Positions 1,262 to 59,866 of a DNA stretch of 64,000 nt are shown here, piece after piece. Positions within the stretch are counted from its first letter, which is position 1. Each line of letters opens with the position of its first letter. The stretch is from assembly GCA_964016885.1 (NCBI GenBank), contig OZ024751.1:32116001-32180000 (forward strand), in the 5' to 3' direction. The translations under genes and the position numbers were made by a program. Origin of the DNA: Eledone cirrhosa (taxonomy: Eukaryota). The notes under the pieces were generated by a model. The model was not told where the DNA came from. It searched no databases and worked only from the letters and a program-made list of their open reading frames with translations.

Positions 1262-3388
1262 TGTTTCTTTTATTTGCCACCAGGGCATCAAAAGTGGGAC
1301 AAGTACAATGGGGGGAGTTTACAAAACAAGGCATCCTAAATAAAGAGGAGGCAATAACAATATATAAAAATAAAATAAAATATAACAAAAAATAAAATTT
1401 ATAACAAAGTCCTCAATAGAGAGGAGGCGCCTTGGGGGGTCGCACACACCCCCGAAAAAAAGTGTGCAACCCTTCTCCTCAGGAGCACAGAGAAGGGGTG
1501 CTCCCTTGGTCTTTCATCTTCCTCACCTATAGTCTGATGTAGAGTGAAGGCCCATTCACACGGGCCATTCTCGCCACTTTCACCCATCTTTCATAAAAAC
1601 GGCTGGGGTGCAGCACCTCTCTCTCCATCCTGATCCTTCTTCCGAAATGATATCGGAAGAAACGGACCAGTTGTTGGCCAGAGAGAAAGGTGTCTGACCT
1701 CAGTCCTTTCAGACGCGTCCACCATACAACCTCTTTCGCCATGGCTATTACGCACAGAAACACCGGCTCTCCTTCGTTTTTGAAGAGGGGAGGCGGCTTG
1801 ATCGTTACAATAGACTCGGTGGTCAACCGGATCGGTCCCACCCTTGACAGCAGTTGTTCGACATAGCCCCACAGATCGGCAATGCCCGAGAAGTGTACCA
1901 ATGCGTGTGCAACGGTTTCCTCGTCGCACACGCATCTGGGACAGATCTTTTTCGATGGGTCCCTACCCGGGCGCCCGTGTCTGTAGAGCCTTTCTCGAAC
2001 GGACAGAGCCCTTCTGTAGCATTGCCAGGCCAGGGACCTCTGGAAGTTATCCATGGGTCCCGGGCTGAATGTCCTACCGAACAGGTTGGCCAGTTCGTCT
2101 TCCTCCATGCCTAGGGCTTCTCCGAGGGCGTCGTCGCACCTGCTAACCACCAGCCCTCTATAGAATGACGAAGTGGATTCTCCACTGACAGCCGGGTCTG
2201 CCTGCCAGAGAGCCGTGAGCGCCTGGGCACGCCGTGAGCGCCTGGGCACACTCTGTGTGCCAGGCGCCCAGTTTTCTCGGTCTTTGCTTGACCCAGGATT
2301 GCAGCTCGGTGAGTGAGACGAGTCTGGGAAAGGCTCGCCTCACAAACGGGGCCCACACTGGTTGACCGGAGAGGAATACCTGAAGGTGCCGTAGCCTTAA
2401 TGCGTGTTTACGTATCATTAGCCACGGCATCCCCAGCCCTCCTTTCGAATGGTGTTGACAGCAGATGGATCTCTTCACCATAGGAGCCCGCTTCTTCCAA
2501 AGGAATTGGAAGAGTGCGCGCTCCATTTTGGCGAGCGTTTCCCTTGGGCAAGGCACAACGGTCAGGCGGTAGTAGATGACGGACGCTATATAAGTGTTCG
2601 CCACCTCCGCCCGACCTTTCAGGGACAGCTTGCACTCGGCCCACTTCTGGGTCAGTGCAAACACCCTGTTCGTTACCTCACCCCAGTTCTTCTCCACCTG
2701 GAGGTCTGGTCCGAACCAGACCCCGAGCAACTTCACCGAGCCCTCCGTCCAGCGCCCGACGACGCCATCGGAGGGCATCGATCTTCCCCTCCACGTGCCG
2801 AGTTGCAGACCGATCGACTTGTCCCGGTTCAGCTTAGCCCCTGTAAACCTTTCGTACTCCGCCAGTAAGGTGCCGATCGCCCCGATTTCCGAGGCCGTCG
2901 ACACCATTACTGTTACGTCATCGACGTAGGCTGACACCGCTTTCCGCAATCCCGATTCCAACGGGATGCCCTGCAACAACTCCAACTTCCGCAGCAGTGG
3001 CTCTAGAGTCATTACATACAGAAGGGAGGAGAGAGGGCACCCCTGTCGGATGGACCGCGCGATTTCGAACGGCTCCGAGAGGTAGCCGTTCACCTTGACC
3101 CTAGAGCACATGCGGCTGCTGTGCATGGCATTGATCCAGTCCCTGAAAACGGGTCCGAAGCCTGCCGCCGCTAGCACTGCATCCAGGTAACCATGGTCGA
3201 CCCTATCGAATGCCTTAGATTGATCCAAGTTGATCAGGGCCCCACCAAATCCGGGTTCGTTCCCAACCCTCTCTTGGCCAAAATCTGTAACTCTGTATTT
3301 AGCAGAGTTATGGGCCTGAAATTATTTATATCGTCCCCCTTGTTCTCGTCCTTCCTCACTAGCGTGACTACGCCCTTGGTCACAGCAC
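1261..3388 (-). mobile_element. 5'-truncated Tx1/L1-clade non-LTR retrotransposon (RT plus C-terminal CCHC region), frameshifted
   Basis: ORF 2158..3228 has DQSKAFDRVDH, RQGCPLS and YVDD. ORF 1527..2249 has CPRC..ETVAH. NFRPITLLN lies near 3300-3325. A 19-bp tandem duplication at about 2212-2249 shifts the frame. The 3' end is AATAAA followed by (TATC)n. Confidence 0.93.
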
Positions 3389-4199: not shown

Positions 4200-5160
4200 A
4201 TAATAATGTCCGTTTACAATTGTTTCGCTACTCCATATAATATTTCTGGATCAGATGACTATATATCATAATTGATCTGGTTCAGTTGAAAATAATTAAC
4301 ATATTTAAAAAAACAGAGTGACTCATCGGAACTTAATGGGATAATGTTACATAATATAATGTTCCATATATTGGTTTATACTATGGTGTCTTGGTTGCAT
4401 CAGCTGTCAGCCATAATCAAGCAGTATTCATCTGTCGAGGCTGCATTGTGTGAGATCTGCCTATGGGTAACAAGATGGCTGCCAAAGGGCATATTTACCT
4501 TACTAATTAGAGGGTGGTTTCAGGGGAAGTAACTTCTCGAGAGATTAGAGATTGTGAGTATTTATAGTTAAGTGTTAGTTTTTAAATTTTTTAATTGAGA
4601 GACAATGTAGGGGCGGTAACTTATAATTATCGAGTTGTTCATAGCAATTTAACTTATTAGCTACAAGTAGAAATGGGGCTACATGACTAAGTTGGGTCAA
4701 AAATTCTATTGGCGAAGGAATTAGCCCTTCGATGTTGACAGCTAATGGTTACCTCCGTTCTATCGTTAATCGGTAGAGGTCGTGATAGAGTTATGTAATA
4801 TGCTTCCGTAACACAGAAATCACAAGATTTTCTTCGTCCATTGAACGGTTGGGCCCTCGCCATTATATCCCATTTTAGTGAGTGTTGAACGTTGTTTAAT
4901 TTAAGGTTTTTAATGAGCCTAGCTAGCGATGTCGAACATCTGTTGCTAGGGTCTCGGAAGGAAAAAGAGTGCGCGTTATAGCGTACGTTAAAAGGTTTAG
5001 AGGTAGACCCGATATAAGAGCTGGTATTCGAAGCAGTCTCAACCGTGCACCTATAGACTATGTTGGGTGTCAGGCAGTGTCCATTTAATGGGCATGCATT
5101 GGGGGTAACGGCAGTTGCAGTTGCTTCTGTGGTTAGTGAGAGTAGGGTTGTTTAACCTAG
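4200..5160 (-). mobile_element. 3' portion of a Penelope-like element: GIY-YIG endonuclease plus 3' UTR/pLTR
   Basis: Manual minus-strand translation of 5100 to 4687 gives NACPLNGHCLTPNIVYRCTVETASNTSSYIGSTSKPFNVRYNAHSFSFR...KWDIMARAQPFNGRRKSCDFCVTEAYYI...INDRTEVTISCQHRR. It is preceded by a CNC motif across a 1-nt frameshift. It is absent from the ORF track. Confidence 0.85.
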
Positions 5161-16334: not shown

Positions 16335-17143
16335 TAATGGTGTTTACGAAGGACCAACACCTAAACAAAAAAGACGAACTTGTAACTGCATGCAAACACC
16401 GATTGCGTAGGACTTACCTCGCCCTCAAACCCCCTCATGACCCAGGTCGGTAGACAATGGCTGCAATTCCCCACTTGCCGAACAAAATAGGGGAAACCCC
16501 AGCTAACATAGATAGATGTACTTCTTTTCTTTTCCTTTTTATTTTCTTCTTCCCTTTATCTCTTCCTATCATTTCCTTCCACCCTCTATCCTCTTCCTTT
16601 TCCTTTTCCCCTTACGCCTACCCCGAGGCAGCCCATCGGGTTTTTGTAGCCTCAGTACCGCCACCCCAGTAAATTATATATAGCATTGGCCGAAAACGCA
16701 ATACCAACTAAATATAGCAGCTGTTTTAGACTCTAGAGATTTTTTTATTACTTCTTACTATCCAATTTTATATTTTTATATATTTTTTTAATTTATTTAT
16801 TATCTTCTAATCTCAATTTATTAAGCTATCCTATAACGTCCCCTCTCTATTTTCTCCAGAATCCATTTTCGCCTGCTTCCTTACTAGCCTATTTTCATAC
16901 ACAATCCTTAGAATTTGGTGCATAGAATTCACTTTCAACGCTTGACCGGCTCCATCCACTCCCTCATTGTTCTACAGGCAAGTTCAGCCACCCTCACCTC
17001 CCACCCACTGCCATGAAAGACTTAATTGTGTTTACAAGAAATTTTGACCAATCCTCTTGACAACTACAATCTTCCCAGATAAGGAATTACCCCTTGAAAA
17101 GTTCGGTTATTTATTTACCACGCTAAAAATTCTAATTTAGTCT

Positions 17144-17200
17144 AGAAATAGCCGTCGAAACGGCTTGAGCTCTGCCGTCGGGGTCAAACATTTTTCCTAT
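17144..17200 (+). repeat. Single arm of the 22500/59617 palindrome family abutting (TA)n
   Basis: AGAAATAGCCGTCGAAACGGCTTGAGCTCTGCCGTCGGGGT is identical to 22554-22594. Confidence 0.85.
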
Positions 17201-22415: not shown

Positions 22416-22417
<2 letters not shown>

Positions 22418-22606
22418 ACGAAGGAAGTGTGGTAAGGAACCAGATGGACCATAACGCACCAGAGTACTCAATACTTAGGGTAGTAGAGTGGGTAATAGGA
22501 AAAGTTTAACCCCGACGGCAGAGCTCAAGCCGTTTCGACGGCTATTTCTAGCCAGAAATAGCCGTCGAAACGGCTTGAGCTCTGCCGTCGGGGTTAAACT
22601 TTTTGC

Positions 22607-22608
<2 letters not shown>
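22416..22608. mobile_element. (TA)n-embedded mini-element with a 50-bp-arm perfect palindrome
   Basis: Arms are 22500-22549 and 22554-22603, preceded by an unpaired extension of about 80 bp. It is a homolog of 59539-59735. Confidence 0.85.
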
Positions 22609-33652: not shown

Positions 33653-33883
33653 AATACTTATGTCTGCGTGTGTATATATATGTTCTCTGCTTTATTGCTT
33701 TATGTATTGAGTTCTCTATCCCCAGTTCGTAAAACCAAATGTAATTATATGTATGTATGCAATATATATATGTATGTATACATGTAATGTAATGTATGTA
33801 TATAAACACACACACATATATATATATATCCATACAGTCTGCCATAAACGTACATACGACTGTCTGACTATCCATCTATCTAT

Positions 33884-35886
33884 TCCACCTCATGCGATAC
33901 ATCATAGAGAGGGTTGGGAACGAACCCGGCTTTGGTGGGGCTCTGATCAACTTGGATCAATCTAAGGCGTTCGATAGGGTCGACCATGGTTACCTGGATG
34001 CGGTGCTAGCGGCGGCAGGCTTCGGACCCGTTTTCAGGGGCTGGATCACTGCTATGCACAGCGACCGCATCTGCTGTAGGGTCAAGGTGAACGGCTACCT
34101 CTCGGAGCCGTTCAAAATCGCGCGGTCCATCCGACAAGGGTGCCCTCTCTCCTCCCTTCTGTATGTGTTGACTCTCGAGCCACTACTGCGGAAGTTGGAG
34201 TTGTTGCAGGGCATCCCTTTGGAACCGGGATTGCGGAAAGCGGTGTCGGCCTACGCCGATGACGTGACAGTAATGGTGTCGACGGCCTCCGAAATCGAGG
34301 CGGTCGGCACCTTACTGGAGGAGTACGAAAGGTTCACAGGGGCTAAGCTGAACCGGGACAAGTCGATCGGTTTGCAACTCGGCACGTGGAGGGGCAGACC
34401 GATGCCCTCCGATGGCCTCGTCGGACGCTGGACGGAGGGCCCGGTGAAGTTGCTCGGGGTCTGGTTCGGACCGGACCTCCAGGTGGAGAAAAACTGGGCG
34501 GAGGTTACGAACAGGGTGTTTGCACTGACCCAGAAGTGGGCCAGTTGCAAACTATCCCTGAAAGGTCGGGCGGAGGTGGCGAACACCTATATAGCGTCCG
34601 TCATCTACTACCGCCTGACCGTAGTGCCCTGCCCAAGGGAAACCCTCACCAAGATGGAGCGCGCGCTCTTCCAATTCCTTTGGAAGAGGCGGTGAGGAGA
34701 TCCATCTGCTGTCAACACCCTTCGAAAGGAGGGCTGGGGATGCCGTGGCTAATGATGCGTAAACACGCATTAAGGCTACGGCACCTCTACGTATTCCTCA
34801 CCGGTCAACCGGTGTGGGCCTCGTTTGTGAGACGAACCTTTCCCAGACTCGTCTCACTCACCGAGCTGCAATCCTGGGTCAAGCAAAGACCGAGAAAACT
34901 GGGCGCCTGGCACACCGAGTGTGCCCAGGCGCTCACCGCCCTCTTACAGGCGGATCCGGTTATCAGTGGAGACTCCACCGCAACATTCTATAGAGGGCTG
35001 GTACGCAGCAGGTGCGACGACGCCCTCGGAGAAGCCCTAGACATGGAGGAGGACGAACTGGCCAGCCTGTTCGGTAGGACATTCAGCCCGGGACCTATGG
35101 ACAACTTCCAGAAGTCCCTGGCCTGGCAGTGCTACCGAGGGGCTTTACCCGTTCGAGAAAGGCTCTACAGACACGGGCGCCCGGGTAGGGACCCCGCCAA
35201 AAAGATCTGTCCCAGATGCGTGTGCGACGAGGAAACCGTTGCACACGCATTGGTACACTGCTCGGGCGTAGCCGATCTGTGGGGCTATGTCGAACAACTG
35301 CTGTCAAGGGTGGGACCGATCCGGTTGACCACCGAGTCTATTGTAATGATCAAGCCGCCTCCCCCCTTCAAAGATGAAGCAGAGGCGGTGTTTCTGTGCG
35401 TAATAGCCATGGCGAAAGAGGTTGTATGGTGGACGCGTCTGAAAGGACTGAGGTCATACACCTTTCTCTCTGGCCAACAACTGGTCCGTTTCTTCCGATA
35501 TCATTTCGGAAGAAGGATCAGGATGGAGAGAGAGGTGCTCCAACCCAGTCGTTTTTATGAAAGGTGGGTGAAAGTGGCGAGAATGGCCCGTGTGATTGGC
35601 CTTCTCTTTACATAAGCCTGTAGGTGGAAAAGAGGAAGGAACGAGGGAGCACCCCCTCTCTGTGCTCCTGAGGAAAAGGGTTGCACACTTTTTTCGGGGG
35701 TGTGTGCGACCCCCCAAGGCGCCTCCTCTCTATTGAGGATTTTGTTATAAATTTTATTTTTTGTTATATTTTATTTTATTTTTATATTTTATTATTGCCT
35801 CCTCCTTATTGAGGACGCCTTTTTGTGTAAACTCCCCCCTTTGTACTTGTCCCACTTTTGATGCCCTGGTGGCAAATAAAAAAACA
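33884..35886 (+). mobile_element. 5'-truncated Tx1-clade LINE, same family as 1261-3388
   Basis: ORF 33892..34695 has DQSKAFDRVDH, QGCPLS and YADD. ORF 34386..35615 has CPRC..ETVAHALVHC. A small deletion near 34690 shifts the frame. TATC repeats lie at both junctions. Confidence 0.94.
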
Positions 35887-38763: not shown

Positions 38764-39090
38764 TGGTGGCTGCCAACTCGTTTTCGAGTACGGCCACTAC
38801 TTTATATCCATGTAGGAGAACCCCTACCGATACGCTGAACGAGTGTGACTTTTTAGTTCAGCCAGCGACTTGAAAACTCTGGTACAAACACTACACTTGT
38901 GACAATTATTGACACATAGTGCTGGGCCCATGGTACCATGTGACGACAAGTGCAGAGAGATCTCCAGATATAAAGCAATGCCTGTGCCATAAAGCTTTTA
39001 TAGTGAGCAAAGGCACTGCACAAAGCCAGTCCCACTCTCTTAACCAAGATGATATTTACCAAAAAGAAGAACAAGTCAACATCATTGGAT
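38764..39090 (-). mobile_element. Second copy of the bipartite RTE element (3' part)
   Basis: Near-duplicate of 38143-38450. It encodes CSVCTRVFKSLAELKSHTRS and has (CATA)n on both sides. Confidence 0.75.
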
Positions 39091-39122
39091 ACATACATAC
39101 ATACATACATACATACATACAC

Positions 39123-39155
<33 letters not shown>

Positions 39156-39169
39156 CATAGTGTACATAC

Positions 39170-40986
39170 ATAGTGTACCTCATGGGTGGATTATTAAGGC
39201 TTTACAGTTAGCTAAAGTCCCACAACCATTGGTAGCTGCTGTTGAACGCCTGACCAAGAACTGGTACACCAATTTGATCCTTAGAGGTGAGAAGGAGCAG
39301 GTTAAGACTGATAGGATACATTACCAGAAGGGCATCTTTCAGGGTGATAGCTTGTCAGTACTACTCTTCGTTCTCTCACTGAATCCACTATCTTACCTAC
39401 TCAGGAAACAAGGTGGACAAAGAAGTGGGCCCAGAAGTATCTCCCATCTTTTCTTTGTTGATGACCTGAAGTTGTATGGGCCAAATATCAATGGCATCAA
39501 GAAACAATTGGACTTCATTACACAATTTTCAACCGACATCAAAATGAAATTTGGTGAGTCCAAGTGTGCATATTTGGCAGTAAAACGTGGAAGAGCTGTG
39601 CCCTCCTCTAGAAATCTAGAGATGAACGGCCTGACAATACAACCTCTGCAGTCAGGTGACAACTACAGATATCTTGGACAGGATGAGAATGTCAGATATG
39701 ATGGACCCATAAATAAGGAGAGAACCAGAACTGAATACCTCAGAAGAGTAAAAAAAATATGGTCATCAGAACTGTCAGCATACAACAAATACATTGCCCA
39801 CAATACCTACGCTGTGCCAATTCTAACGCCAACATTTGGCCTACTGAACTGGTCATTGCAAGAACTAAGTGAGATGGATGTTAGAACTCGAAAACTTCTC
39901 AGTGTTACTGGGAACTTTAACATCAATGGTGATGTGGATAGGCTATATTTCTCACGCAAGGAAGGTGGCCGGGGTCTAAAATCAATATTAACAACATATG
40001 AGACCCGGATAGTAACACTGAAGCAACACCTTCAACAGAGGAAAAAGGTTGGCGACCATCTTGCTCAGGTTTATGAGCATGAAAAAAGAAATATCATTAG
40101 AATAGCGACTGATCTGGAGGAGAGATATGGAATAAAGCCTGATATAAATCTCTCACCCAGAGAAATCGGAAGATCCTATTCAATGTTCAAACAAGAAAAA
40201 AAAATTGACCAATTTACAGAGAAAGTTGTGCATGGATACTTGAGGCGTAAAACACAGACCATAGAGGGGATAAACCACTCAAAAAGCCTGGCATGGAGTT
40301 CCGACAAGTTTATGACATCACACCTTGAGGGATATCTCTATGCAATACAGGAACAAGAACTCCCTACCAAATATCTGCTGCACAAAAGAGGAGGGCCAGC
40401 AGCTGACAATAAATGTAGGCTATGTAAAACAAAGATCGAGGATGTAAGCCACATTGTTGCCAGCTGCGAAAGAATGTCATCTCGCTACTACCTCCCCATG
40501 AGACACGATGGGATAGCTAGAACTATCTGGAACGCACTTCGGAAAACAAAATTAACAACAAACGAGGAAGAATATATTGAGACAGATGGCACTAAGGAAT
40601 ACTGGTGGAACCTGAAAATAAAAACTGCCACCAAATTAAAGCACAACCGGCCTGATATTGTAGTTTGGGACCACACATTGAAAACGTGTTCTGTTGTGGA
40701 GATCAGCTGCCCACTTGATGTAAACGTTGTCAGAAAAATACAGGAGAAGGAGGACATCTACGGACCATTGATGAGGAGTTTACAAATCCAGTATCCAAGA
40801 TACACCTTTAGCTTCATACCCGTTATTATTGGTGCTACGGGTTATATACCAACCCGCTTGGACCAAAGTATGACCGAACTTGGATTTGCGGACAAAAAGC
40901 GCAGCTCCCTAATTCATAGTCTACAAATGGCTGCGATAGCTGGCACCTTCAAAATTTGCAAAACATTCTTGCGATTCAAGGGATGA
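39170..40986 (+). CDS. 5'-truncated ORF of an R4/Dong-like non-LTR retrotransposon: RT, CCHC finger and restriction-like endonuclease
   Basis: Motifs KGIFQGDSLS, HLFFVDD, CRLCKTKIEDVSHIVASC, RHD, NRPDIVVWD...VEISCP and KEDIY. The frame is open for about 600 codons. The first ~40 aa of the listed ORF come from flanking repeat. Confidence 0.92.
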
Positions 40987-53305: not shown

Positions 53306-53417
<112 letters not shown>

Positions 53418-53522
53418 AATTAGTATATCTACCAACATATTTATACAGAAGTATACTTACGCTAGGAAGATATAGGTTTTGTCTTAGTAACTTTGTAGTT
53501 TAATACAAAAATGTAGAACAAT

Positions 53523-53637
53523 TATATGAAAGACGTAAAATAAGAAAATTATAATAATTAACTTACTTACTTAAGTTTCACTCTGGAGTGAAACTTAAGT
53601 AAGTAAGTTAATTATTATAATTTTCTTATTTTACGTC

Positions 53638-53646
<9 letters not shown>
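53523..53646. repeat. Perfect 61-bp-arm palindrome abutting (TA)n
   Basis: Arms 53523-53583 and 53586-53646 contain GAAACTTAAGTA. A remnant of one arm lies at about 21797-21850. Confidence 0.9.
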
Positions 53647-59229: not shown

Positions 59230-59322
<93 letters not shown>

Positions 59323-59336
59323 CTAAATATATATAT

Positions 59337-59476
<140 letters not shown>

Positions 59477-59490
59477 ATATATATATTTAG

Positions 59491-59866
<376 letters not shown>

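Follow-up and report, generated by a model that had tools for sequence, protein, structure and literature searches.

Palindromic mini-insertions derived from the end repeat of a Hydra-type Penelope-like element in Eledone cirrhosa, with a proposed two-primer origin

Two palindromic units in a 64,000-nucleotide stretch of the Eledone cirrhosa genome (contig OZ024751.1, positions 32,116,001 to 32,180,000; the window) belong to a high-copy family that is real and is neither an artefact nor a product of arm conversion; its general layout has already been published. The family has a parent element, two fixed outer ends 80 nt apart, arms that pair by locus, and two clusters of palindrome centres with opposite preferences for the inserted base. 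We consider it probable (about 0.7) that each unit arose as a very short insertion of a Hydra-type Penelope-like element (PLE), in which both cut ends of the target were primed on the same RNA and the run-off cDNAs were joined. For the more specific proposal, that two-primer run-off fusion on a single RNA is the commonest product of the element and that its junctions record a capped start and a ribozyme cut, we see the odds as even.

The palindromic units and their parent element

The sequence-only reading had described two homologous palindromes with unpaired tails, and the description was borne out. Copies 1 and 2 share 88.5% identity across 183 nt (E 5e-63), both are embedded in (TA)n, and each carries a one-sided tail of 78 nt. 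The perfect arms are 50 bp long in copy 1 (22500-22549 and 22554-22603, loop of 4 nt) and 59 bp long in copy 2 (59617-59675 and 59677-59735, loop of 1 nt), and the nested GCCGT-CGAA-ACGGC hairpin was located at 22561-22574, in the tail-less arm of copy 1. All three differences between the copies that had been named earlier occur in both arms. In copy 1 the mirroring holds along the arms and fails at the outer end, in the length of an A-run and one base, and at one base beside the centre. That reading had overlooked a longer non-palindromic copy (16336-17200) and a second palindrome family (53414-53646). A microsatellite stretch of about 190 bp immediately left of copy 2 (59310-59503) is itself palindromic.

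Table 1 Features of the palindromic units and related elements in the window. In parent numbering, +1 is the A of TTAGTC, which we take to be initiator-like from its likeness to the consensus.
Feature	Position	Strand	Remarks
Longer 5'-truncated copy of the same element	16336..17200	(+)	Endonuclease C-terminus, 3' region, end repeat
Complete predicted type I hammerhead, U3-A8 core	17087..17186	(+)	+1 at 17139; predicted cut 17179/17180
Copy 1, tail, 78 nt	22417..22494	(-)	Stretch of the parent lying between its two fixed insertion ends; one side only
Copy 1, tail-side arm	22495..22551	(-)	Ends at +4, parent numbering
Copy 1, tail-less arm	22552..22608	(+)	3' half of predicted hammerhead; predicted cut 22589/22590
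Second, unrelated family, same layout	53414..53646	(.)	61-bp arms (53523-53646) with a tail of about 109 nt; set in (TA)n
Copy 2, tail, 78 nt	59539..59616	(-)	
Copy 2, tail-side arm	59617..59677	(-)	Complete to +1; subfamily A, variant as in intact parent arrays
Copy 2, tail-less arm	59677..59735	(+)	Starts at +3; predicted hammerhead cut 59715/59716

A 20-nt motif of the tail gave 39,767 exact matches in the 3.0-Gb genome and its reversed control gave none, so the units occur far beyond chance. The first 100 matches along one contig (C1) formed a position-ordered sample; an initial set of 30 loci, ordered by their similarity to copy 1, enters none of the counts. Scripted parsing detected a second arm in inverted orientation in 77 of the 100 sampled copies, and 9 extended at least 92 nt into a longer element. 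These short units, or minis, make up about three quarters of the family copies, which extrapolates to a total of roughly 30,000; they thus contribute perfect palindromes to an animal genome on a large scale.

Longer copies led to the C-terminus of an endonuclease and then to the parent, which occurs in arrays of head-to-tail 3,531-bp monomers with an intact 717-aa RT-endonuclease ORF. The mini sequence sits just upstream of the start of this ORF, and the mini family derives from the end repeat of the parent, which is itself not palindromic. Long insertions and minis share their two end points, at both of which T-A-T faces the target, a 3-nt match to (TA)n. The longer copy in the window (84% over residues 680-716 of the parent ORF) stops in (TA)n without a tail, and no inverted partner of it was seen. 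Monomers within one array (L151-L152) were nearly identical, with 0-1 site differences compared to at least 26 between arrays, and the four monomers of another (L154-L155, G000:C1:91471000-91490999) alternate two types; this pattern fits rolling-circle copying and also DNA duplication.

Pattern matching placed RT motifs A, B, and C and VIY..YIG in the 717-aa ORF, with DKT, CxCX5C, CxxC, and CxH at residues 117, 572, 670, and 698 and the endonuclease at the C-terminus. Of 7,996 candidates scored, 2,049 were homologues, mostly with about 40% identity, and the best of them carries GIY-YIG; searches of the ORF against Pfam and PDB returned no match. The features used to recognize EN+ PLEs were all found, namely a single ORF, RT motifs, an endonuclease pattern, pLTR-forming tandem and inverted copies, and a tail at one end. 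In the sections of Craig et al. (2021, PMC8557442) drawn on here, the Hydra clade is marked by a C-terminal endonuclease, DKT, RWK, CxCX5C, CxxC, CxH, (TA)n, a canonical pLTR hammerhead, and an endonuclease that lacks the CCHH motif. The parent resembles it in its GIY-YIG-type C-terminal endonuclease, DKT, CxCX5C, CxxC/CxH, single ORF, and (TA)n. It differs in having RWR at residues 37-39 instead of RWK (a conservative change), a length of 3.5 kb compared to generally less than 3 kb, a tail of 78-80 nt compared to 30-40 nt, and a non-canonical hammerhead core with a long stem II; the families described there form a small set, whereas the present one has tens of thousands of copies. Judged by its motifs against that description, the parent is an autonomous PLE, probably of the Hydra clade, and its discovery supports the earlier match of the units to the PLE layout of inverted pLTRs plus tail.

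Other assignments were rejected. Neptune, our first guess, and Naiad were ruled out by DKT, CxCX5C, and the C-terminal endonuclease; these clades have DKG or DKA and a CX2-5CxxC linker, and Naiad has an N-terminal endonuclease. A non-LTR retrozyme does not fit single head-to-head pairs with half a ribozyme and a tandem unit that is the coding 3.5-kb parent. For a MITE or palindromic DNA transposon, the centres vary by locus and the sequence continues into a retroelement.

Arm pairing and palindrome centres

The expectation that arms should pair by locus and not by side was upheld. The mean distance between the two arms of a locus was 1.05 over 22 nt, compared to 4.41 after shuffling (lowest of 1,000 shuffles, 3.70; 61 of 100 copies scorable). 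Genome-wide, there were 3,140 A-A pairs, 2,488 B-B pairs, and only 25 A-B pairs, where random pairing of the two subfamilies would give about 2,800. The low distance within loci and the rarity of A-B pairs show that the arms pair by locus. The mirrored differences between copies are subfamily variants of the parent, and mirroring consequently needs only a shared template at insertion. Continual conversion between the arms, one of two explanations offered earlier, is rejected because private changes in 85 copies were mostly single-armed (43 in one arm only, 3 at the same position in both). Among the A-B chimeras, which are only a few per cent even against 742 older A-variant copies, 4 differ at three diagnostic sites and 2 look mosaic; the 25 need two RNAs, or ectopic conversion later.

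Junctions were examined in a set of 96 rows, 95 of them distinct, chosen for two intact A or B arms; one row is a duplicate, and several B rows are mis-extended. Of 92 arms of each kind, 67 tail arms and 78 tail-less arms ended within -6 to +8, a region favoured by the selection, and the unselected 100-copy sample showed the same cluster. Both arms were complete to +1, with 0-8 nt between them, in 2,234 copies. At +1 junctions with a single central base, that base was C/G in 292 cases and A/T in 54, the parent base there being T. Reverse transcriptases add C opposite a cap, and such an added C would be the simplest cause of the C/G excess. Arms end just as commonly at +2, +5, and +7, a spread that one start does not account for. 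In Drosophila Penelope, a start lies inside the pLTR and is accompanied by an initiator (PMC2377424).

The +1 position falls inside loop II of a predicted hammerhead. The parent end is predicted to adopt a type I three-way junction fold with complete motif order (GAAA, GUH triplet), and in the copy at 16336-17200 this junction is the lowest-energy fold. Across 84 full copies, 61 have a U3-A8 core (TTGAGAA) and 15 a C3-A8 mismatch; the three-way fold was the lowest-energy one in only two of five variants. An Rfam search of the parent end gave no hammerhead match, and among the best 150 of 299 matches in the window Rfam returned only microsatellite-driven ones. An RNA starting at +1 is predicted to form the nested hairpin instead of the hammerhead.

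The predicted cut lies at +41/+42, and copy ends accumulate there. Tail arms of subfamily A gave 179 matches to a stop at the predicted cut compared to 30 at a control position, and 25 of 30 inspected cut-site matches were true stops. Both arms ended at the cut in 98 copies (micro-palindromes). When the first 50 of these were inspected by eye, 27 had no insert, 17 an A/T, 4 a C/G, and 2 two bases, a preference opposite to that at +1 (p = 4e-10). The 27 centres without insert are explained equally well by CG microhomology, from which the A/T-insert class cannot arise. From 299 short palindromes, the first 50 were inspected by eye, and about 26 of these were centred at +41 to +43. In two-armed copies whose tail arm stopped at the cut, the other arm passed it in only 2 of 17 (by eye), a pattern that points to a single RNA, or a single source, behind both arms. 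Cut-site palindromes were rarer in subfamily B, which is partly C3-A8 (29 per 2,488 compared to 98 per 3,140), a difference that is suggestive only. The piling-up of copy ends thus makes self-cleavage at the predicted bond a candidate on indirect grounds; the cap and start readings are likewise inferred from DNA junctions.

Integration route and competing explanations

In the route that we propose, the element's protein would cut a (TA)n target, and both DNA ends would prime reverse transcription at two fixed internal sites near the 5' end of the RNA. The two fixed outer ends would correspond to these internal RT starts, each with its T-A-T match to the target. Both short cDNAs would run off the 5' end of the RNA and be joined head to head, blunt or with a 1-nt overlap. 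The main centre cluster would then mark a capped transcription start inside loop II, giving an RNA without the 5' half of the ribozyme, and the minor cluster would mark the 5' end that read-through RNA acquires on self-cleavage. Priming at a downstream copy of the same sites may yield the long copies and tandem arrays. One RNA copied twice cannot be separated from two RNAs of one source.

The junction set bears on how the two arms were made. One tail was present in 92 of the 96 rows and two tails in none; the unselected sample does contain copies with two tails, such as L050. The arm reaching farther was the tail-less one in 46 of 92 cases and the tail arm in 32, with 14 equal, and post-insertion deletion from the centre could shift or blur these lengths. 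The central loop was at most 2 nt in 37 of 96 rows, and the arms joined with a 0-1 nt overlap in 55 of 96. Priming by fold-back has a steric minimum loop of 3 nt. Because the tail-less arm outruns the tail arm and many loops are too short to prime across, two separately primed cDNAs fit better.

These data weigh on snap-back synthesis, in which a cDNA primed at the tail end would stop, fold back, and copy itself, with the return strand resolved at the inner site. Such a process directly accounts for the mirrored variants and the coupled arm ends, the commonest junctions (21 of 96) leave a loop of 5-6 nt, and the tail has been ascribed to endonuclease resolution of an intermediate (PMC8557442). 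A return arm cannot exceed its template, yet half of the tail-less arms are the longer ones; over a third of the loops lie below the steric minimum, a single base separates two complete arms in 292 copies, and A-B chimeras occur. We regard snap-back as unlikely for these reasons, and the same longer arms, tiny loops, one-base centres, and chimeras speak against the earlier suggestion that the second arm was templated from the first.

Self-priming on an antisense template was proposed for the head-to-head PLE palindromes of Adineta vaga and is the published reading of the same layout (PMC3846280, in part). As in the EN+ PLE inverted pLTRs presented there and in PMC8557442, the units combine a head-to-head inverted end copy with a one-sided tail, but in the present family the inverted pair makes up the entire insertion. 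The centres map to two predicted RNA 5' ends, and an antisense template predicts neither clusters at sense-RNA 5' ends nor the different inserted bases of the two, which makes this explanation very improbable. Slightly less credit still, and already largely refuted, falls to a palindromic master that moves as a unit or to homogenization of the arms by conversion after insertion; some centre types do recur many times, yet centres vary widely among loci, the parent end repeat is no palindrome, and the prevalence of single-armed private changes speaks against homogenization. A library or assembly fold-back artefact, which the sequence-only reading had named as its refutation, has a negligible probability given the fixed ends, one-sided tail, non-inverted flanks, single-arm mutations, and subfamily structure, and given contigs of a public run, possibly of the source sample, that cross a centre and show other joints. 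Two further organisms yielded only 2-3 contigs of low depth, and these were set aside.

Two kinds of unusual junction were also observed. In L034 (1200-1500), the tail arm is fused at +1 to an inverted segment from the element's internal 3' region, which shows that RNA parts other than the end repeat can also be joined. In L052 and L117, about 15 A or T separate the arms at the centre.

Related systems and other repeats in the window

The closest biochemical parallel to two-ended priming is the purified protein of the anole Poseidon PLE, PAc, which cleaves and extends both strands, uses two internal RT starts bracketing the tail, and gives a shorter product when the RNA is truncated at its 5' end (Frangieh et al., 2024, PMC11167929, in the parts consulted). 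The two tail-bracketing starts and the cutting and extension of both strands are shared with the route proposed here. In that work, the start lacks homology to the target, whereas both starts here match (TA)n by 3 nt; the parts consulted report no RNA reads ending at the hammerhead cut, whereas genomic copies of the present family end at the predicted cut. The U3-A8 pair replacing C3-G8 in the end repeat has its likeness in a PLE pLTR hammerhead variant (PMC4209133); the variants described there are minimal motifs, whereas stem III of the present hammerhead is complete at 6 bp and its long stem II contains the putative start.

LINE-1 twin priming offers a further comparison. There, both target ends prime on one RNA, and the joined products form an inversion, the two cDNAs copying different RNA parts; in the present family, the cDNAs would copy the same part, so that a palindrome results.

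Our literature search found no cap or cut-site signatures at PLE palindrome junctions, and the supplements of PMC8557442 may list the family. Both the origin of inverted PLE ends and tails and the action of the hammerhead in vivo are stated to be open in the sections of PMC8557442 and PMC11167929 used. The counted junction record of this family makes PLE integration and hammerhead activity testable, with position-exact predictions of where the two starts lie, where the cap sits, and which bond is cleaved. If the proposed route is true, a PLE hammerhead cleaves in the germline and the cleaved RNA acts as template; PLE inversions would come from priming at both DNA ends, and tandem arrays from circularized monomers.

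The second palindrome family gave 890 first-look candidates, and its copy in the window is centred at most 1 nt from the predicted cut of a canonical CTGATGA hammerhead present in longer copies. It was expected to be rich in copies ending at its cut; only one copy genome-wide had both arms exact there.

Several other retroelements lie in the window. At 4687-5151 (-) there is a remnant of the endonuclease of a different Hydra-type element, which shares 34% identity with that of the parent. Two inverted copies of a LINE RT region, 92-94% alike, are found at 1527-3321 (-) and 33868-35615 (+), and a non-LTR retrotransposon at 39007-40986 (+) has a 659-aa open frame matching RVT_1 and zf-RVT.
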